This document shows positions 10,590 through 51,156 of a DNA stretch of 64,000 nt, one piece after another. This stretch comes from Clostridium sp. Lineage in GTDB: Bacteria > Bacillota > Clostridia > Clostridiales > Clostridiaceae. Within the stretch, counting starts at the first letter, position 1; each line of letters opens with the position of its first letter. The notes under the pieces were generated by a model that saw nothing but the letters and a program-made list of their open reading frames with translations, did no database searches and was not told the origin of the DNA. The stretch is from contig NZ_JBOGCC010000278.1 in the NCBI RefSeq assembly GCF_051656525.1, forward strand, positions 22,112 through 86,111, written 5' to 3'. The position numbers were made by a program, and so were the translations under genes.

Positions 10590-11513
10590 TCAGAGTTTGT
10601 ATTTCTTGGTCAGCTGCGCCAACTTATAATCCAGATCGCGGATACGCTCTTCGTGGATTGAAAGTTCTTTCTCCAGCGCTACGTCACCTTCACCACGCTC
10701 GAGTCGGTTCTTAATTAGCAGTACACGATAGTGCAATGCTTTTTCTTGGGCAGTCAGACGCTCAAACTCTTGTGCTTGTGCTTCAACACGAGACAATCGG
10801 TAGTGATACAGCATTGACAGCGGCCAGCTCAGGTTAGCAAAACCGAATGGGTTAGCGTTACCGCCGCCCAGAGCGATTTGTTCTGCTTCACCTTCAGCTG
10901 TTTCTGCGATACGCATTTGTGGCAGGGTTTTGATACCGCGCTTTAACTGCTCGGTAGTCATAGCCATGATCTTCAATGCTTCAATGTAGTTTACTGAATT
11001 GGCGACGATTGATTCGTAAACATTTGGCGAAATGCCAGATTTACGATCTCGGCCATCCAGAGTATTGTACTCTGTTGCCGTCATCCAGTTCAGCAAAGTC
11101 GCAGTATAGGTAACTACGAAATCTACAGTTTCAGCATATTGCAGGATAACTGCTTTGGTAAAGGTCAGGCCGCTACGGAAGATCTTGGTTTCGAAACTAC
11201 GGTTAGCTTCAGAAATGATCACCGGAATACAATGCTGCATGTTTTTCAGAACTGCTTGAATAGCTTCAATGCCTGAGCAGTCACGTGGTAACTTCAAGTG
11301 GTCTTGAGTACGAACTGCTTTAGCGATCTTATTACTGATCTCAATTAGTTCAGCATTCTTCCACTTGTATTCATGTCCCAGTGTAGACACGAACATATCA
11401 GTGCCAACCAGGAGGTTGTTAGTGATTTGTTCCTGTGCCGTTTCAAGGTTTAATTTGACTGCCTTAGATTCCATTGAAGGCAACAGTTTGGCAGCGTATT
11501 GATACAGGCTCAT
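10590..11513 (-). CDS. Inner head protein (phiKZ gp90-like)
   Basis: Start moved to MSLYQY (GGAG SD); C-terminal coiled coil; synteny. Confidence 0.6.
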   Translation of the reverse strand: MSLYQYAAKLLPSMESKAVKLNLETAQEQITNNLLVGTDMFVSTLGHEYKWKNAELIEISNKIAKAVRTQDHLKLPRDCSGIEAIQAVLKNMQHCIPVIISEANRSFETKIFRSGLTFTKAVILQYAETVDFVVTYTATLLNWMTATEYNTLDGRDRKSGISPNVYESIVANSVNYIEALKIMAMTTEQLKRGIKTLPQMRIAETAEGEAEQIALGGGNANPFGFANLSWPLSMLYHYRLSRVEAQAQEFERLTAQEKALHYRVLLIKNRLERGEGDVALEKELSIHEERIRDLDYKLAQLTKKYKL

Positions 11514-11523
11514 CGATGACTCC

Positions 11524-12657
11524 TTAATAAGACGGTGCAGCGCCTGCGGTGTATGCACGCAGAACGTCTTCTACTTCGGCTCCGCCCTTCTTGTTAGCGC
11601 GCTTCAACGCATCTACGGAAACGGTTGTTTTCTGGTCAATACCACGGTGATAGAACGTTACCTGTTCCCACTGGGTATCAACTACAACCATGATCATAGT
11701 ATAAGTTGATTCGAACACACGCTGACGGATTGCGTAGTCGTCCAATTCACCACCCATTTCCAGTTCCAGCTCTTCAGCTTGGCGAGTAGTAAACGCCAGA
11801 ATAGCGGAAGCGTTGTTTACTGATGGACGCAGTGAGAACAGACCAGACAGGAAGTTCTTAGAACGCTTGCTCAGAATGTGGCGATAGAACTTGGACTTGT
11901 CTTTGATGCGAGTACGACGCGCTTCATCGATCAGGTCATTCAACATGATCAAATCGTGGAACCAGTGCAGAGAACCGGCACGCACGCGAATCAGACGCTC
12001 TTTAAAAGAGTTGTTGGTGCTGCCTGAGCGCAGGATACCTAACATTGTTGCGTCATCTACGTCGGATACCATCAGACGCACTTGCATGTTTACTGGCTTG
12101 CGATTGCCGTTTGCTTCGAATACAACTTCGAATGACTTACCAACAGACAGGTTAGCCAGCTCACGCAGGTCGGCTTGAGTAGTACGACCGAAAGACATAC
12201 CGCGTTCATCACGAACGTCTTCGATAGCTTCGAAACCGCGCTTACCTGACTTAGGACGCTGTGCGTTTAACAGCATACCGGAGATCTCGGGATTAGGCAG
12301 ACCATACTGCCAGCTCTCTGTACCCAGGAAGCTGTGTGCTTTTGCACCGGCGCCTAACAGAGAATCCAGTGGATCACGATTGGTGTTGATCTGGTCGAGA
12401 ATCTCTCTGTCATTAATGCCATCAATTTCTACCAGTGTAGAAATGGCAGACAACATGTATGAAGTTACCAGCGTCAAGCACGACTGCATAATTTCGTTTG
12501 AATATGGCAAAGCTGCCACATCAGAAGTTACCAGTGTTAGGAACTCGTTGCGCGTGTTGCTCGATACTTCAATGATGCTATCGCTCCGAGACTGCTTTAC
12601 CAGTCCCGCGAGTCGACTAATTACCGTGGAGACTACTGGTTGCAGTTCTTCCAACAT
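11524..12657 (-). CDS. Inner head protein (phiKZ gp89-like)
   Basis: ATG at 12657 with GGAG SD; internal LGTE/RGFE sites; synteny. Confidence 0.6.
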   Translation of the reverse strand: MLEELQPVVSTVISRLAGLVKQSRSDSIIEVSSNTRNEFLTLVTSDVAALPYSNEIMQSCLTLVTSYMLSAISTLVEIDGINDREILDQINTNRDPLDSLLGAGAKAHSFLGTESWQYGLPNPEISGMLLNAQRPKSGKRGFEAIEDVRDERGMSFGRTTQADLRELANLSVGKSFEVVFEANGNRKPVNMQVRLMVSDVDDATMLGILRSGSTNNSFKERLIRVRAGSLHWFHDLIMLNDLIDEARRTRIKDKSKFYRHILSKRSKNFLSGLFSLRPSVNNASAILAFTTRQAEELELEMGGELDDYAIRQRVFESTYTMIMVVVDTQWEQVTFYHRGIDQKTTVSVDALKRANKKGGAEVEDVLRAYTAGAAPSY

Positions 12658-12687
12658 ATGCAAACTCCCAATTTTACGAGGTAGATT

Positions 12688-13965
12688 ATGTCCGACGAAT
12701 TACCCAATGCACTACTTGATAGCATAGGTGTCGAGGATGCAAGAAAACGATCCAAAGAAAATGTTAGAATCGCCTCTGGGCGCGGCGAAGGAGAGGCTGC
12801 AACAGCTGGCCTATTCAGCGGTTTTAACCATAGAAATGCACCTATCGATTTACCGCGCAACACTGACCGGATCGGCTATACCTTCTTTACTCGCACCGAT
12901 GTTAACTTTGACCTTAACAATATAAAGCGTTCTCGCTTCTTGACAGAAGCACTACGCGCTGGTCATAGTTCGTATACTGCAGCAATTATGGCAATGCTAG
13001 ATCCGCAATGTGGTATCTTCTCTCAGATGAAGGACACTTACGGTGGTCCAGATAGACCAAACCAAGCATTCATGCCTGAAGGCGAGTATGGTATGGTGGG
13101 TGGTAAAATCCACAATGAAGTAGGCTTTGACAACAAGTGTGCATTCATTCCAATGTTGTCTAACCTGCTTGTATCTTTGTCTGGATTCCCTGATTCTTCT
13201 CTAGACGTATATCGTACTGAAGAAGGTATCATGCGAGAACAACGCTCATATCCAGACAGTACACGTAATACTAACGGCGCCATTACTCTCTCTGCTACAT
13301 TCAGTAATATTGCTGGCGACCCAGTCTCTGTCCTGTTCAACATGTTGATTGATTACATCGCACGTGTTAAAGACGGTACGTTCTTACCACGCTGGGAAAA
13401 CATGTTACAGCGTCGTGCTGATTACGAGATGCGTGTCTATCGTTTATTGACGGACACCACAGGGCGATATGTAACCAAGTATGGTATTGGTAATGCGATG
13501 TTCCCATTGAATGATACTATGGGTGCATTTATGAACGTGCCTAATGCCAATAATGGTATCATTGCCGACATCGACCAGCTCAACGTTACGTTTGAATGTA
13601 ACGTTACTAGTTACAATGACCCAATCATTAAGCAAGAATTTAATGAAGTGGTTACGATGTTCAATCCAGACATGATTCGTGCGTCCAGTTCTAATGCTGC
13701 TTTCAAACCACGCAGTGATAAACTTATTAAGCTAGATGGTGCTGCACGTATCTACTGTAACACTCACGGTTATCCGCATCTCGATGTAAATACCAATGAG
13801 CTATCGTGGTGGGAATACAGTGATGTTATTGATCGACTAAAAGGTCGCAGTGCCGATCCTGTAGAAAAACAAGCAGTCAATACTTTCACTGGTATACCAG
13901 GTTATGTATTACCGCCGGTTGGCGAGGATGGATTAGTCCCACTCGAACCTTGGATACCTTTCTGA
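12688..13965 (+). CDS. Virion structural protein, tail-tube/baseplate related (phiKZ gp88-like)
   Basis: 425-aa ORF, GAGG SD, divergent from the gp89-like gene; synteny. Confidence 0.55.
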   Translation: MSDELPNALLDSIGVEDARKRSKENVRIASGRGEGEAATAGLFSGFNHRNAPIDLPRNTDRIGYTFFTRTDVNFDLNNIKRSRFLTEALRAGHSSYTAAIMAMLDPQCGIFSQMKDTYGGPDRPNQAFMPEGEYGMVGGKIHNEVGFDNKCAFIPMLSNLLVSLSGFPDSSLDVYRTEEGIMREQRSYPDSTRNTNGAITLSATFSNIAGDPVSVLFNMLIDYIARVKDGTFLPRWENMLQRRADYEMRVYRLLTDTTGRYVTKYGIGNAMFPLNDTMGAFMNVPNANNGIIADIDQLNVTFECNVTSYNDPIIKQEFNEVVTMFNPDMIRASSSNAAFKPRSDKLIKLDGAARIYCNTHGYPHLDVNTNELSWWEYSDVIDRLKGRSADPVEKQAVNTFTGIPGYVLPPVGEDGLVPLEPWIPF

Positions 13966-38345: not shown

Positions 38346-38355
38346 ATAATATATG
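38346..38355 (-). promoter_or_regulatory. Putative early promoter CATATATTAT upstream of nvRNAP beta-C
   Basis: Exact motif copy. Confidence 0.65.
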
Positions 38356-38370
38356 TGTGAGGTATTTTAC

Positions 38371-38700
38371 ATGGCACATCCATTTAATCAACATCGTGAT
38401 TACATTACGCCAGATGTTGCCGCTAACCCCAAACTACGTGAGTTGATACTGCATCACGCAGATTACCTCAGAAAACACCCTTTATCAAAAACAGTACCGG
38501 TTGACGCAAATATGCGTAGCTTAGACCTGTATGATTTTTATCGATTTATGAAGAGTGTTGGGTATCCTAACGAATTGCATTACGTAATCATGCTCATCAA
38601 TAATATTCCTTCGCACATGCACTTTGATACCAAAGTGGATCAATTGATCATTCCCGATTCTGGAGTGGTTGAAGACATTATTTCTATTGCTGAACTTTAA
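38371..38700 (+). CDS. Small protein, possibly LysM-like baseplate wedge (T4 gp53/gpX type)
   Basis: GAGG SD at MAHPF; YDFY...LHYVIMLINNI.S..F...LIIP pattern. Confidence 0.5.
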   Translation: MAHPFNQHRDYITPDVAANPKLRELILHHADYLRKHPLSKTVPVDANMRSLDLYDFYRFMKSVGYPNELHYVIMLINNIPSHMHFDTKVDQLIIPDSGVVEDIISIAEL

Positions 38701-38710
38701 GACGAAAAAA

Positions 38711-38734
38711 AAAGAGGGGCATCTGCCCCTCTTT
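38711..38734. terminator. Bidirectional terminator
   Basis: aaagaggggc-atct-gcccctcttt between convergent genes. Confidence 0.85.
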
Positions 38735-38747
38735 AGATCTTTTATGA

Positions 38748-40082
38748 TCAATCGTAATCAAACAGGTTGACACCACCGCTACGGCGTTTGTCATTCCGGT
38801 CATCACGACGATCATCTCGGCGGTCACGGTCGTCGTAACGATCGCGGCTACCGAATCCATCACGCATGCGGTCACGGCGACCACGGTCATCATAACGATC
38901 ATCATCATCATAACGTCCGCGACGGTCACGGCGGTCATCATAACGGTCCCGACGGTCCCGACGATCACTATAGCGGTCATCGCGGTCATCACGATCGTCA
39001 CGACCACGACCATTAACTTCACGCAGATAATCATCATAATCGCTATCGCGGCGGTCACGTCGATCATCACGTAAACCACGGCGATCGCTATCACGTTCGC
39101 GGTCACGCTCTTTACTGTTTGTGCGATCCAGATCATCCAGTGATACGGTCTTACCACCGCGTGCTGCATTAGGTAAGTTATCTACGCGCTTGCCTGATTT
39201 TTCATCTTCAGTGTCGCGAATTGACTTAACATCAGTACCGGTGTTATCTTTCAGGTCTGGAATCATACGATGGTATTTACTGAAGTTGTCTTCGAGAAGA
39301 TCTTCGAACCATTCGGTATTGATTTGCGGTAAATCGATTGCCCCTTTGAACAACGCTGTGATGTTATTCAGTCGCTTGGTGATTGTTCGATGTGCTTCCA
39401 TCAATGCATGGAAATATGGTACAGTGTGGTTACTGCCAAATTCCAGCGGCATATCTTTGAAGATTTCCGTCAATAGATTGCGGAACATCTCCTTGTTGGC
39501 TTTCGAGTGCACGTTTACGCCGCACAGGATAGCACCCGGTTGCTCATCGCTAATGACTGGGATTTCAACAACGCACATACGTGCATACAGCACATCATCC
39601 AGCTTTTTGTTACGGTTCAGATAGATGCTAAACAAGCCATCATTTTCTGACATTTCTGTAACCAGCTTGGTCCACTTCTTAGCGGTATCGTCCTTCATAT
39701 CTTTGATGATGGTCAGGTACTTAATCGCTTCTGCTGACTTGATTGATTTTTGCTTTGCTGGATTCTTAGCCAGGTCAAACATGGCTTGGACAATCAGGTC
39801 CAAGCGCAGTGAGTTTGCAGCCAATACGCGACGAGTCAGGAAGTGAATCATCTTGGATTGGCCATGCAATGCATCTTCACATAACGGGTGGAAGAACACA
39901 GCATCTTTAAGATCGCGGGAGTCCAGGTTTTCTTCGGTCGGCAGATAAAGTTTACAGCCATCCACTTCAACGTGGTCATTGTTCTCATTCGGGAATAGCA
40001 CAGAGCCACGGTTCCCGATAACTAAGAACATGCCAGTCAACAGATTGGCATAATTGTTACAAATTTCTTGTTCCAGAGACAT
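38748..40082 (-). CDS. phiKZ gp70-like nucleus-block protein with a ~125-aa Arg/Asp-rich C-terminal tail
   Basis: Directly downstream of the picA-position gene; tail of DRRDRR/DDR/YDDR repeats. Confidence 0.7.
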   Translation of the reverse strand: MSLEQEICNNYANLLTGMFLVIGNRGSVLFPNENNDHVEVDGCKLYLPTEENLDSRDLKDAVFFHPLCEDALHGQSKMIHFLTRRVLAANSLRLDLIVQAMFDLAKNPAKQKSIKSAEAIKYLTIIKDMKDDTAKKWTKLVTEMSENDGLFSIYLNRNKKLDDVLYARMCVVEIPVISDEQPGAILCGVNVHSKANKEMFRNLLTEIFKDMPLEFGSNHTVPYFHALMEAHRTITKRLNNITALFKGAIDLPQINTEWFEDLLEDNFSKYHRMIPDLKDNTGTDVKSIRDTEDEKSGKRVDNLPNAARGGKTVSLDDLDRTNSKERDRERDSDRRGLRDDRRDRRDSDYDDYLREVNGRGRDDRDDRDDRYSDRRDRRDRYDDRRDRRGRYDDDDRYDDRGRRDRMRDGFGSRDRYDDRDRRDDRRDDRNDKRRSGGVNLFDYD

Positions 40083-40085
40083 CTA

Positions 40086-41591
40086 TTATTCCTCGTTCCA
40101 GCGGTTGTACTTCCGCTCTCCATATTTTTCATCATCGCCCTTGTGGAAAACTTGTTTATCTACGAATTCCTTGGACAGGTGGTGATACTGCTTCGCGTTG
40201 TCGTACGTGTTTTCTGCCTCGTACGATGTTGTGGTACCGAAGATACCAGTCATTGATGCTGGATAACGGAACTCCTCTGGCGCGTTGTTCTCGTATTCCA
40301 TTTCGATTTCAATCTGGCCGCCAATCGCAGCTGATACACGAATGTATACATAACGACGGTTTCTATCGCTGATGCGATCGTACACCTCGCCAAGAATGCG
40401 GCGAAGACAAGCCTGAGCCATGATATCGCTCGTATCGATATTTGATACTGCTGCGAAATCGTCGATTGACATTTCAGGCTTGCCATCAATAAGCTGGTCA
40501 TTGTCAATTGTAAATGACAGCTGCGCCAACTTATAGTCATTCATCATAGATGGAATTTCTTGGCAAGCGATTGCCAGCGAACGCATCTTAGATGACTTAC
40601 CGTAGAATTCGCGGGAGATATAAGAGATATCATTACCAGCAATTGGCATGATTACTGTAATGTCTTGCAGGTCTTCAATGATTGGATTGCGAACATCCAT
40701 CATATCAACCCAGTCACGATATTGGCAAATACCATTCTGTGTAACATCAGGATTGCGATTACCCAGGAATGAAATCAGACCACCTGCTAACTTATAGCGG
40801 TTGGTGTGGACCGAATAACTTGCCGACTGATAACGACTTTCGCCAAAGATGTCAGGGTTACGTAATGATTCTGCATACGTACGACTATCTGCCTCAGTAG
40901 CAGTATCTGAATCCAGAAGGTTGAACAGGAATGTTGAGCGGTTCAGCTCGCGCATGTCTGCCGCTTTGCCTTCCTTCATGAATGCGGAACCAGTCACGAT
41001 AATTTCACCGCGCTTGCGTGCCGTTTCCAAAGTATTGGAATGTTCCATATCGGTAAAGATTAAGATATCTTCAACACGACTGGTGTGGTGGCGATCGCGG
41101 CTAGAGTGGTCTTTGCGCTGTACCAGAATGATTTTAGAAACATCATAGTGTACATATTCATCGCCACGTTTATCGCGACGCATCGTTGTGCGATATTCAG
41201 TAATCTGGTTGATGTACATATCCAGACGATCATCGATATTAACCAGATCATCGTCATAAATCTCACCGGTAAATCCAGATACGAAGAATGAAATACCCGG
41301 CATGTTAACCGTACACTCTTCGAATTCTACCAGTGCGTGCCAGCGCATACGGCGCAAATCAACAGCGTCGCCATTGCGGCCAATACGCGGTGTATAAGAT
41401 GTATCCGACACATCCAGGCCGGCATTCAGAGTACGCGAGATCATATCGCGGTTTACTTTACCCTGTTCTTCATATTCTTCAGTCAGAGCATCGATCATAG
41501 ACTGGTCGAAGTTCATGATCATCGAGCGCTGTTCTGGTACTACCATATCGCGGATTTCCACGAACACAAGCTCACGCAGGGTTGGATGCAT
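40086..41591 (-). CDS. picA: Protein importer of chimalliviruses PicA/Imp1 (phiKZ gp69-like)
   Basis: 501 aa, immediately after the sigma-like nvRNAP subunit; assigned by conserved synteny, not by motif. Confidence 0.65.
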   Translation of the reverse strand: MHPTLRELVFVEIRDMVVPEQRSMIMNFDQSMIDALTEEYEEQGKVNRDMISRTLNAGLDVSDTSYTPRIGRNGDAVDLRRMRWHALVEFEECTVNMPGISFFVSGFTGEIYDDDLVNIDDRLDMYINQITEYRTTMRRDKRGDEYVHYDVSKIILVQRKDHSSRDRHHTSRVEDILIFTDMEHSNTLETARKRGEIIVTGSAFMKEGKAADMRELNRSTFLFNLLDSDTATEADSRTYAESLRNPDIFGESRYQSASYSVHTNRYKLAGGLISFLGNRNPDVTQNGICQYRDWVDMMDVRNPIIEDLQDITVIMPIAGNDISYISREFYGKSSKMRSLAIACQEIPSMMNDYKLAQLSFTIDNDQLIDGKPEMSIDDFAAVSNIDTSDIMAQACLRRILGEVYDRISDRNRRYVYIRVSAAIGGQIEIEMEYENNAPEEFRYPASMTGIFGTTTSYEAENTYDNAKQYHHLSKEFVDKQVFHKGDDEKYGERKYNRWNEE

Positions 41592-43206: not shown

Positions 43207-43818
43207 TTAAAAGTCCATCACTTCATCAAAAGTCATGCCTGCTGGCTGTGGTGCTTGCTGGCCATATTGACGTTGGCCACCGCCTTGTCCGCCATTCTGA
43301 CCAGGCTTATAAGCGCGCTCTTCTGCGGTCTTATAAGAGTTGTTCCATGCTACCGGCAACATCTGAGCAATGTTTTCAAACCACGCCATAAACAGATCAT
43401 AAGAGATCTCGTTATCCGGCACAACCTGACCGTTTTCCATCATCGCAAACTTAACGTTTGGAATGAACAGATGTTTAACGGAACCACCGCGAGTATCTTT
43501 ACCGCCGATGTATGCAACGCCGTCGTCGCCAATACCGAAAGCTACCATGCCATAGTTTTGGTTATCGCGGCCTTTTTTGCAGTTAAGTGCTACGTTAACG
43601 TTACGATCTTCCGGCTTCCACTTCTTCACGCGGTTGTAAATAATGCGGAAGTAATCCAGTGTGATATCAATGTTCAGAAAATCGTTACCTACTTTGGTAC
43701 CGAGCTGCAAACAGTTGTTCCAAAGTGAAACACGGAGGCGCATGGTTTTGCCACCGTCGATCTTGGCGATTGGTTTGAATGCGTTTTCGTCCAGATAATT
43801 CTTTTTGATGTCAGACAT
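43207..43818 (-). CDS. chmC: Nucleus-associated RNA-binding protein ChmC (phiKZ gp67-like)
   Basis: 203 aa, beta-rich core plus a G/Q-rich disordered tail; lies immediately upstream of the sigma-like gene. Confidence 0.6.
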   Translation of the reverse strand: MSDIKKNYLDENAFKPIAKIDGGKTMRLRVSLWNNCLQLGTKVGNDFLNIDITLDYFRIIYNRVKKWKPEDRNVNVALNCKKGRDNQNYGMVAFGIGDDGVAYIGGKDTRGGSVKHLFIPNVKFAMMENGQVVPDNEISYDLFMAWFENIAQMLPVAWNNSYKTAEERAYKPGQNGGQGGGQRQYGQQAPQPAGMTFDEVMDF

Positions 43819-49020: not shown

Positions 49021-51156
49021 TTACCAGCGTGCGTTACGGGTACGGCTATGGTTGTCGCGGTCGCCACGACCACGACGATCGCTGCTACGACGATTGTTGC
49101 GGCCAGCGCCACGCATTTCGTCATAACGCAGACCGTAGTGTGCTGATGCACGTTCGCCACGACGGCCGCGTACTTCATCACGGTCACGGTTAACCTGAAG
49201 CTCCATATTTGCACGATGGAATGCTGCATAGCACGCTTCCATGAACAGTGGATCGAAGATCATTACGGTGCAGATGCCGGTCATCTTGAAGGTATCACCG
49301 GACAGATGCTTGTAAAGATCCAGCGCAATGCCAACACGCTCATCATTGGACAGGCCACTTGTAGAGCTGTGTGCACGGATATAATCATCCAGACGCTGGG
49401 TATCGCGATCTTGGAACTTAGACGCTGCGAACCAGTGGTCCAGTCGAGTAACCGGTTGTGGGCCATTGTTGGTCATGTAGTGACCATCCGGCAGGCTGAA
49501 TGCAGCTGCGATTACATCACGACCTTTCAGACGATCGAATTCGTCGGTGAAGTAATTGTTTGTTGCATCGTCCAACAGATCAAACAGGTGCTCACGCGCT
49601 ACGTTGCTACGATCTTCGTAGATGTCGCGCAGCAGCTCACCGAATGATGAACCAGGCATGCCTTCGTTATAACGGTATGCGAATTCCATGCCCAGGCTAT
49701 GGCGAACCAGTCGCTTCAGAACTTCGAAGACTTGTTGATCATCTTCTGGGTTCTCCATGTCCAGTTTACCCGGCTCAACGGATGCCTGTGGATCCATCAG
49801 GTAGCCCAGATCGCGGATGTCGCGGTCACGGCTGCTGAACGCGGTTGGCATAAAGCAGCGGAAGTAGCGATATGCTTTATCCAGGTTAACTGCGATGGAT
49901 GCAGCAATCATGCTACGTACCATTGGACCAGCTGATTCTTCTTCACGATACACGTCGATTTCGCTGAAGACCATTCGTGGCAGGAGGCATGCCAGATTGT
50001 GGTCTTTGCTACGATCATCACGAGTAGAGTCTGGTGACTCAACCGGCAGCAGGTCGATATAACCACTTGCTGTTGCCCACTGTGCCTGAGAGGTGTTATC
50101 AATCAGGGAAGTTGAACGGTTGTTACCAGTCTGTGAAGTTTCCAGTGAGATGGAAATGTCGTTACGGATTGGCAGACCTGCATAACCAGCTACGTCGGAA
50201 GTACCGACGATGCCGATGATGCCTTCCAGCTTGATGCCGTCTGCTTTGAAATCAGCATCGAACAGCTCGCGAGTCAGGCCGGCCGCAGTCAGGATGTAAT
50301 CAGTTGCGGTACCCAGAATTGGTAGGATCTCGTCAACGGTATCCAGAGACACGCCGTGTGACAGGACTACATAACCGCAGTAACGCATATCGCTGATGCT
50401 CAGTGCGCTATGCAGGCTGCACAGAGTCTCTTCGACAGAAGTCAGAGTCTTGTCATCCAGCTGCTCGCCCATTGAGATATATTCGCGAATTTCATCGCGG
50501 TCACGACGACGATCGTTGTTACGACGAGTTACTTCGCGAACGGTAGATTCGCGGTTCTCTACCACAATCAGTGAGTAGTAGAACTTCGGATCGTTATCGA
50601 ATGTACCGACGGTTGCCAGCAGAGACACTGGACCCAGGTTTTCCATACCCGGAATTGGGAAGGTTTTAATTGCTTCTTCCTGCATCTTAGCGAGCTGGTT
50701 GGAAGAGTTAGCTTTCTTCCACTCTTGGTGCAGTTGGTTGAAGCGGTTCACGCGCTGGTTGTTGCGTGAAGAACTGTATGCGTTACCGATGTTCAGGTTC
50801 ATTCGTGGTTTATCCTCGAAAGTTTCTTTCTTATCTTTAGCGCGTGTGCGCTCTTCTTCTTCGCGCTCTTCGCGCTCACGGCGTTCACGGTCTTCACGAT
50901 CGCGACGTGCATTTTCACGCTCACGCTCACGGCGTTCACGGCGTTCTTCATCGCTATCACGACGTTCACGGCGTTCATCGCGATCATCACGTTCGCGACG
51001 GTCGCGACGGTCTTCACGGCTGTCTTCACGGCGATCGCGACGGTCTTCGCGACGCTCTTCACCACCAGTGGTTTCTTGACCTTCAGTCTTTCCTTCTTCA
51101 ACCTGCGCGTTGTTGGAGGTTACTTCTGTTTCAGTAGCACGGCGCTTGATACCCAT
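49021..51156 (-). CDS. chmA: Chimallin, the phage nuclear shell protein (phiKZ gp54-like), with an R/D/E-rich N-terminal extension
   Basis: 711 aa, immediately upstream of nvRNAP beta'-N and near DNA pol, which is the chmA position; disordered termini, ends RW. Confidence 0.8.
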   Translation of the reverse strand: MGIKRRATETEVTSNNAQVEEGKTEGQETTGGEERREDRRDRREDSREDRRDRRERDDRDERRERRDSDEERRERRERERENARRDREDRERREREEREEEERTRAKDKKETFEDKPRMNLNIGNAYSSSRNNQRVNRFNQLHQEWKKANSSNQLAKMQEEAIKTFPIPGMENLGPVSLLATVGTFDNDPKFYYSLIVVENRESTVREVTRRNNDRRRDRDEIREYISMGEQLDDKTLTSVEETLCSLHSALSISDMRYCGYVVLSHGVSLDTVDEILPILGTATDYILTAAGLTRELFDADFKADGIKLEGIIGIVGTSDVAGYAGLPIRNDISISLETSQTGNNRSTSLIDNTSQAQWATASGYIDLLPVESPDSTRDDRSKDHNLACLLPRMVFSEIDVYREEESAGPMVRSMIAASIAVNLDKAYRYFRCFMPTAFSSRDRDIRDLGYLMDPQASVEPGKLDMENPEDDQQVFEVLKRLVRHSLGMEFAYRYNEGMPGSSFGELLRDIYEDRSNVAREHLFDLLDDATNNYFTDEFDRLKGRDVIAAAFSLPDGHYMTNNGPQPVTRLDHWFAASKFQDRDTQRLDDYIRAHSSTSGLSNDERVGIALDLYKHLSGDTFKMTGICTVMIFDPLFMEACYAAFHRANMELQVNRDRDEVRGRRGERASAHYGLRYDEMRGAGRNNRRSSDRRGRGDRDNHSRTRNARW

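Follow-up and report, generated by a model that had tools for sequence, protein, structure and literature searches.

The arginine/aspartate-rich tail of a gp70-family protein from an uncultured chimallivirus, a candidate shell-docking element matched to chimallin

Proteins of the gp70 family are core, shell- or nucleus-associated components of the nucleus-forming chimalliviruses. PhiPA3 gp64, an early-expressed protein, localizes to the nuclear shell, is proximity-labelled by ChmA and RecA baits, and co-purifies with ChmB-GFP (PMC10643120). In phiKZ, gp70 is listed as a nuclear protein and, unlike gp67/Imp6, does not co-purify with Imp1 (bioRxiv 10.1101/2024.03.27.586873). Goslar gp173 is known to be nuclear-localized, carries the nickname 'Taileboi', and has served as a tag for import (bioRxiv 10.64898/2026.10.01.755736); it represents the same gene because Goslar PicA is gp174. 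Here, we describe the homologue encoded in a 64,000-nucleotide stretch (the window) of contig NZ_JBOGCC010000278.1, assembly GCF_051656525.1, filed under Clostridium sp. Its C-terminal tail consists largely of arginine and aspartate (R/D). No published description of a gp70-family tail was found in the literature, the nearest being the nickname 'Taileboi' (bioRxiv 10.64898/2026.10.01.755736), and recent reviews mention neither the protein nor the tail.

The window protein shares N-domain homology with PhiPA3 gp64, phiKZ gp70, Goslar gp173, and 201phi2-1 gp126, all of PHROG 3520. Gene position is likewise shared, between picA and the genes for the beta-like subunits of nvRNAP (the non-virion RNA polymerase), as is the architecture of a fold followed by a low-complexity tail of ~160 amino acids (aa) with a mid-tail motif. 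The differences lie in the tail itself, which is R/D-rich with a charged fraction of 0.70 in the window protein and rich in Q/M/N/A/G in phiKZ, and in the motif, which is duplicated at the C-terminus in the R/D clade.

Eukaryotic mixed-charge domains enriched in arginine (R-MCDs; U1-70K and SRRM-type) resemble the window tail in alternating Arg with Asp/Glu, in being near-neutral and disordered, and in length (Greig et al., bioRxiv 10.1101/771592). The tail differs from them in belonging to a phage protein, in using D instead of E or phospho-Ser, in its embedded putative docking motifs, and in having uncharged orthologous counterparts. Phenylalanine-glycine (FG) nucleoporins offer a further likeness, in that a protein bordering a DNA compartment bears a disordered tail. 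Some orthologous tails, not that of the window, place hydrophobic or aromatic residues in uncharged polar sequence, for example, NPFAG/NPFGG in the Erwinia phage Derbicus and LLGG/GLGG in SPN3US. The window tail itself, with 1.5% Phe and 70% charged residues, is not of the FG type, and the resemblance is functional speculation only.

Two further disordered tails belong to proteins of the same phages. The N-tail and C-terminal linkers of chimallin (ChmA; 201phi2-1 gp105, Goslar gp189) match the gp70 tail of the same phage in composition, and residues 1-47 of the 201phi2-1 protein are disordered and dispensable for lattice assembly (PMC9365700). ChmC/Imp6 (PhiPA3 gp61), a neighboring nucleus-associated shell protein that binds RNA (PMC11077065), also carries a disordered C-terminal tail. 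That tail, however, is rich in G/N/Q, ends in an acidic-aromatic tip, and shows no co-variation with the tails of gp70 or ChmA.

Anatomy of the tail in the window protein and its family

A first-pass annotation of this DNA had described a mixed-charge tail on the protein encoded next to picA and had assigned that protein to the gp70 family. Both statements hold. The 444-aa reading frame is assigned to PHROG 3520 (E 3.4e-57), and its ~285-aa N-terminal domain is homologous to phiKZ gp70 and PhiPA3 gp64. In tblastn, PHIKZ070 is matched at 28.5% identity across residues 27-296 of the protein, and 212-219 chimallivirus records are matched overall, PhiPA3 064 among them. An exhaustive, profile-free phmmer search returned 1187 representative clusters at E<=1e-3. 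The gene and its parts, all on the minus strand, are as follows.

38748..40082, minus strand: homologue of phiKZ gp70, PhiPA3 gp64, and Goslar gp173, 444 aa (open reading frame; stop codon 38748-38750)
39234..40082, minus strand: globular N-terminal domain, residues 1-283, family-specific alpha/beta fold (AlphaFold2 model)
39159..39233, minus strand: linker from the fold to motif 1, residues 284-308 (predicted disorder from residue 297; alignment)
39123..39158, minus strand: motif 1, residues 309-320, GGKTVSLDDLDR, an instance of the tail motif found across the family
38778..39122, minus strand: R/D mixed-charge low-complexity region, residues 321-435 (composition; predicted disorder save at island 1)
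39009..39044, minus strand: aromatic island 1, residues 347-358, SDYDDYLREVNG, semi-conserved as [SD]-[YF]-E-x-F in the R/D clade
38904..38996, minus strand: lineage-specific expansion, about residues 363-393, ~35 aa (Tandem Repeats Finder; alignment)
38850..38879, minus strand: island 2, residues 402-411, RRDRMRDGFG, conserved as R-x-R-[LM]-x-D-[AG]-F, in which two Arg are invariant across 17 R/D-clade tails
38751..38777, minus strand: motif 2, residues 436-444, GGVNLFDYD, the motif again, at the extreme C-terminus

The tail is strikingly simple in composition. From S314 to the C-terminus, its 131 residues comprise 33.6% D, 32.8% R, 6.9% G, 6.1% Y, and 5.3% S, with minor contributions from E (2.3%), K (1.5%), and F (1.5%) and four RG dipeptides. 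The tract marked in the first-pass annotation (38751-39135, minus strand) corresponds to residues 316-444. The charged fraction from S314 onward is 0.70, and the net charge per residue is -0.015. Residues 1-283, in contrast, contain only 3.9% R and 7.4% D. Positive and negative residues are well mixed (kappa 0.04-0.07, below ~97.6% of shuffles), with like-charge runs mostly of 1-2 residues. The feature is kept in relatives of 45-73% identity and is thus a translated feature rather than a frame artefact.

That the tail is no simple DNA tandem repeat, as had been proposed, holds in essence, and its codons are mixed (Arg CGT 24, CGC 14, CGG 3, CGA 2; Asp GAT 28, GAC 16). A small qualification is the short slippage-type expansion at 38904-38996, where a degenerate 30-nt unit (10 aa, DRRDRRDRYD-like) recurs in 3.1 copies with 76% match and is missing from 16 aligned relatives.

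In the full-length AlphaFold2 model, the predicted local distance difference test score (pLDDT) falls below 50 from residue 297 on. Short helices and confidence bumps appear at motif 1 (315-319) and island 1 (347-357), and also at the C-terminal motif. At conserved segments, such predicted features are the signature of recognition elements within disorder. Apart from the two short helices, the tail is predicted as coil and does not qualify as an ER/K single alpha-helix. It does have the properties of an R-MCD, being disordered and near-neutral with Arg interleaved with Asp/Glu.

Alignment of 17 R/D-clade tails, 37-69% identical to the window tail over the tail region, reveals this order of elements: linker, motif 1, R/D, aromatic island, R/D, second island, R/D, and C-terminal motif copy. 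The core of motif 1 is TVSLDDLD (residues 312-319), in which L and D do not vary across the R/D clade. The C-termini of relatives read GG[IV][ST]LDDLD, with G and L invariant and GGISLDDLD in most.

Across the family, tail length was compared as the first-pass annotation had proposed. A low-complexity, neutral C-terminal tail of 110-300 aa is present in all 170 tabulated proteins, and the addition of named phages brings the set to 185 tails. The R/D type accounts for 58 of them, with a mean charged fraction of 0.56, a net charge per residue of +0.013 +/- 0.026, and positive and negative fractions that rise together (r 0.79); Arg is far more frequent than Lys, and Asp more so than Glu. In only 25% of these R/D tails is charge mixing significantly better than in shuffles. 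Culturable phages with the R/D type include Serratia PCH45, Ralstonia RSL2, Vibrio pVa-21, and Klebsiella FBKp24. The other 127 tails have a charged fraction of 0.13 and ~4% Arg, are rich in P/Q/A/G, and contain 22% hydrophobic or aromatic residues (FWYLMIV); 73% of them end with a hydrophobic residue. Flavors range from the Q/M/N/A/G-rich tail of phiKZ gp70 through the repeats of Derbicus and SPN3US to the WG repeats of FLC9. On a FastTree phylogeny of 183 N-domains, the R/D state requires ~13 changes.

Despite this variety, an expectation-maximization motif search recovered a family-wide motif, G-[LVI]-[SD]-[WFL]-x-[DSE]-[VLI]-[VML]. In 153 of the 185 tails, its score exceeds the 95th percentile for shuffled tails. 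The window protein conforms to the family in both respects, with a long low-complexity tail and a mid-tail copy of the motif. The R/D stretch is thus a lineage-specific form of the disordered C-terminal tail carried by every gp70-family protein.

The N-terminal domain is modelled with high confidence (pLDDT 95.2, predicted template modelling score 0.91). Foldseek found no match in the PDB (best E 0.3), and structure searches of AFDB and BFVD returned family members only. The Foldseek-independent VIA search placed ribosome hibernation factors at the top, with a Z of 5.1 that we treat as chance level. No OB fold is matched by the model (pLDDT 95), so the architecture is not of the single-stranded DNA-binding protein (SSB) type. 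As modelled, the fold has no solved relative and gives no functional lead.

These data bear on the proposal, made in the first-pass annotation, that the tail binds RNA. In its general form, the proposal would have mRNA or DNA bound at the shell by the Arg residues of the tail, which would serve as a nucleic-acid-binding or chaperone module. The Arg content of 33%, the RNA binding of the neighboring ChmC (PMC11077065), and weak echoes of double-stranded RNA-binding domain (dsRBD) and hibernation-factor folds in the N-domain (Z 3.6-5.1) are in its favor. However, each Arg is balanced by Asp/Glu, with the net charge close to zero both here and in the 58 R/D tails, and neither RGG nor RS arrays of the kind seen in RNA-binding tails are present. 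Moreover, about two-thirds of orthologous tails are near-uncharged with little Arg, and the fold echoes are graded at chance level. With most orthologous tails uncharged and the charged ones neutral, the conserved function cannot be RNA binding driven by charge. We regard a nucleic-acid-binding module as very improbable.

Compositional matching with chimallin

A six-frame scan of the window revealed only one other tract of R with D or E, the N-terminus of chimallin.

49021..51156, minus strand: chimallin (ChmA), 711 aa, with an R/E/D N-tail of ~118 aa and an R/D/S/G C-tail (translation; matches Goslar chimallin 7SQT)

Seven ChmA homologues, 37-65% identical over the whole protein and 40-72% over the core, carry the same tails, and PF25677 is found in the homologues. 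ChmAs of the R/D clade all have mixed-charge N-tails of 100-120 aa, and three of them share contigs with R/D-tailed gp70 homologues. DRRDRR, reported in the first-pass annotation as common to the gp70 tail and the chimallin extension, is indeed the longest peptide word that the two tracts share.

The relation was quantified in 18 phages, namely the window phage and 17 named chimalliviruses of several genera. For each phage, the centered amino-acid composition of the gp70 tail was compared with that of the first 60 plus last 40 residues of ChmA. Matched pairs correlate at r 0.61 and mismatched pairs at -0.03 (permutation p 5e-5). The signal is also present in the 11 non-R/D phages alone (r 0.42, p 1e-4), where the phage's own ChmA ranks first in 6 of 11. 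Subtraction of the background-proteome deviation leaves r at 0.60 (p 5e-5). When phages are contrasted in 8 non-overlapping pairs, the gp70 and ChmA tails shift in parallel in 7; the mean r over the pairs is 0.41 (p 5e-4). As controls in the same 18 phages, the gp70 tail was compared with its own N-domain (r -0.02) and with the ChmC tail (r -0.05). A further correlation exists between the PicA C-tail and the gp70 tail (r 0.33-0.37, p<=1e-4).

Several other origins of the likeness were considered and rejected. A lineage-wide 'dialect' of intrinsically disordered regions (IDRs), or a GC or proteome bias, is ruled out as the source of the co-variation by the ChmC-tail and N-domain controls and by the residualization. 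Copying of one DNA cassette into the three R/D tracts of the contig (the third is described below) is rejected, since their DNA matches span 30 nt or less. Mimicry by the gp70 motif of the N-terminal segment (NTS) or C-terminal segment (CTS) of ChmA was examined at the sequence level with a position weight matrix, and no systematic match was found in ChmA tails. With the motif missing there, simple mimicry of lattice-binding segments is not supported.

The two tails also differ in chemistry. The ChmA N-extension (50803-51156, minus strand) is Arg/Glu-rich, with runs such as ERRERRERERE, in contrast to the Asp-rich gp70 tail, which is predicted as coil. Judged by composition, the extension resembles an ER/K single alpha-helix and may form a stiff rod rather than a coil. 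Conserved R/D-rich segments also occur inside the chimallin cores of the R/D clade, for example, RNRKSDRRERRRGR and RVDRDRDEVRGRRG.

An alternative explanation of the matching is that the tail serves as a passive neutral tether, a non-sticky flexible spacer or entropic bristle running from the fold to the terminal motifs. Any hydrophilic, neutral composition would suffice for this purpose. The match to ChmA tails would then reflect the shared constraints of one compartment, in which a tail must remain inert beside DNA, RNA, and a negative shell, together with drift by slippage. Such a tether would account for orthologous tails that are wholly different in composition and yet all neutral, for the recent slippage-type expansion in the window protein, for the modest share of R/D tails that are better mixed than shuffles (25%), and for a weak proteome-wide component (r 0.27). 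It accounts poorly for the ChmC tail, which occupies the same phages and compartment but keeps one G/N/Q flavor without co-variation. In addition, the co-variation involves more than two states and persists once the proteome deviation is subtracted, and the 22% FWYLMIV content of non-R/D tails is unlike that of an inert spacer. Hence, we consider a passive tether rather unlikely.

Modelled docking and the proposed role of the tail

A complex of the ChmA core (residues 143-656) and the gp70 tail (residues 283-444) was modelled with ESMFold2 in three runs, together with three controls. The ipSAE scores were 0.63, 0.62, and 0.52 for core plus tail and 0.00 in all three controls. For calibration, the ipSAE mark applied is attained by 58 of 80 solved complexes and by 2 of 110 mismatched pairs. 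Motif 1 (residues 311-320) and island 1 (348-356) form the tail side of the predicted interface. On the ChmA side, it lies in the C-terminal domain and involves residues 316, 386-388, 427-433, 451-467, 474-483, and 583.

Taken with the co-variation, the model is compatible with a shell-docking, chimallin-matched cohesive tail, a reading to which we assign an even chance. Recognition segments (motif 1, island 1, island 2, and the C-terminal motif copy) would dock the protein on the ChmA core. The net-neutral spacer of ~115 aa, similar in chemistry to the ChmA N-tail and C-terminal linkers, would then establish weak, multivalent like-with-like contacts. Salt bridges between Arg and Asp, along with Arg-Tyr contacts, would serve in the R/D lineage, and hydrophobic or aromatic residues set in polar spacers in other lineages. 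As a result, the N-domain, with its novel fold, would be held at the shell and possibly cross-link it.

Several observations weigh against a docking, cohesive tail. The gp70 tail tracks not only the ChmA termini but also the cores of ChmA (r 0.44) and PicA (r 0.53), and it shows a weak correlation with the background proteome (r 0.27). The matching is therefore not confined to the termini of ChmA and, with the PicA C-tail included, spans a set of shell proteins rather than being purely tail-to-tail. The permutation tests ignore phylogeny. Treated as a binary character, the R/D state requires only ~3 changes on the 18-phage tree, and a test on independent pairs, of which there are 1-3, is underpowered. 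The complex score expresses model confidence and is no measurement; the three runs share only 22-28% of their contacts, with a partner pLDDT of 35-38. Because the NTS and CTS of ChmA were removed, the peptide may sit in the vacated groove as a memory of solved chimallin lattices. Well-mixed polyampholytes, according to what Das and Pappu reportedly found in 2013, are not strong self-associators by charge patterning alone. Finally, phiKZ gp70 and Goslar gp173 are described as nuclear and not as shell proteins (bioRxiv 10.1101/2024.03.27.586873, 10.64898/2026.10.01.755736).

The nuclear localization also suits a homotypic condensate scaffold within the phage nucleus, in which the R/D domain would self-associate to form a replication or transcription body and ChmA would be no partner. 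Pure R/D repeats condense in a length-dependent manner, background that the first-pass annotation had invoked correctly (bioRxiv 10.1101/771592). Tyr is interspersed in the tail at 6%, and the gene is located among RNA polymerase genes. A scaffold of this type, however, leaves unexplained both the specific match to ChmA tails and the modelled docking of conserved segments on ChmA, and PhiPA3 gp64 is found at the shell (PMC10643120). Thus, we judge it quite unlikely.

As for the place of action, the first-pass annotation had proposed the import/export site of the phage nucleus. A role specifically at the import site is disfavored, since gp67 but not gp70 of phiKZ co-purified with Imp1/PicA (bioRxiv 10.1101/2024.03.27.586873). 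RNA binding is disfavored as well. The location and the chemistry shared with chimallin hold, and the interpretation is partly supported. The embedded short motifs and the co-variation with chimallin tails across the family go beyond that annotation.

A docking, chimallin-matched tail would bear on the passage of proteins and mRNA across the chimallin shell, on the attachment of minor shell components, and on the role of the dispensable ChmA N-tail (PMC9365700, PMC10643120). A core, early-expressed, shell-associated protein would combine a conserved putative docking motif with low-complexity chemistry that is matched to chimallin across very different phages. Concrete experimental tools follow from the analysis, among them peptides of the motif, deletions of the tail, and exchanges of R/D for uncharged tails in culturable phages such as PCH45, RSL2, pVa-21, or Goslar.

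A broader and rather doubtful extension is a cohesive disordered layer on the shell, built jointly from gp70-family tails, chimallin N-tails, and PicA C-tails and acting as a selective or adhesive phase similar to that of nucleoporins. Its sticker chemistry (FG, LG, WG, Met-rich, or Arg/Asp) would have been reinvented in each lineage with the three proteins staying matched, and the R/D layer would be held electrostatically. Such a layer would represent a prokaryotic-virus analogue of low-complexity-domain barriers and a natural experiment in interchangeable IDR grammars.

Locus, contig, and neighboring proteins

The gene order around the gp70 homologue is conserved. picA lies immediately upstream, with a gp68-like gene further upstream, and two nvRNAP beta-like genes follow downstream. 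All 16 annotated loci examined, including those of phiKZ, pVa-21, SPN3US, and Goslar, keep the order of the window, whose open reading frames behind this synteny fall in PHROGs 3141, 3209, and 3455.

40086..41591, minus strand: PicA/Imp1 homologue, 501 aa (PHROG 3141; synteny with PHIKZ069), immediately upstream of the gp70 homologue
38353..38700, plus strand: small gene, 115 aa, PHROG 3455, convergent on the gp70 homologue (open reading frame)
38711..38734, both strands: bidirectional terminator-like hairpin between the gp70 homologue and the small gene (10-bp stem, 6 G-C pairs, T runs on both strands)

Of the 16 annotated loci, 15 have the small opposite-strand gene, among them pVa-21, SPN3US, Goslar, PCH45, and RSL2; in phiKZ it is unannotated. 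Pfam contains no family for the gp70 homologue, PicA, the gp68-like protein, or the small gene.

The window belongs to a contig of an uncultured chimallivirus. A megablast of the locus against the phage collection gave no match, which identifies the phage as uncultured. The source contig measures 117.8 kb with 44.5% GC, while the assembly of 3.7 Mb in 412 contigs averages 29% GC. Given this mismatch, the phage contig was probably binned with an unrelated bacterial genome, and the assembly is thus probably no reliable pointer to the host.

The same phage contig encodes, outside the window, a third protein with an R/D tract (626 aa; contig 11041-12918, minus strand), whose internal tract spans ~100 aa. 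With neither a PHROG assignment nor a tblastn match in the phage collection, it stands as an orphan that shares this chemistry.

PicA C-termini look like the tips of other shell proteins from the same phage. In the window phage, PicA ends in ...YNRWNEE and ChmA in ...RNARW (...RAWN in relatives). The PicA of Derbicus ends in ...GFKL, and the ChmAs of the related phages SPN3US and pEa42 end in ...NFKL and ...DYKL. In pVa-21, the end of PicA, GGGNFKLSNLDDL, resembles the gp70 motif.

The ChmC/Imp6 homologue of the window (43207..43818, minus strand; 203 aa) has a G/Q-rich tail with the acidic-aromatic tip FDEVMDF, and the flavor of the ChmC tail is constant across lineages. The tip is acidic and/or aromatic in all 17 other phages, ~15 of which also have a G/N/Q-rich tail; the tails of sm033 and Yong XC31 are K/E/D/S-rich. 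Tips such as DFDDISF, ADDLPF, and DEDIPF strongly recall the tip of bacterial SSB, DDDIPF.

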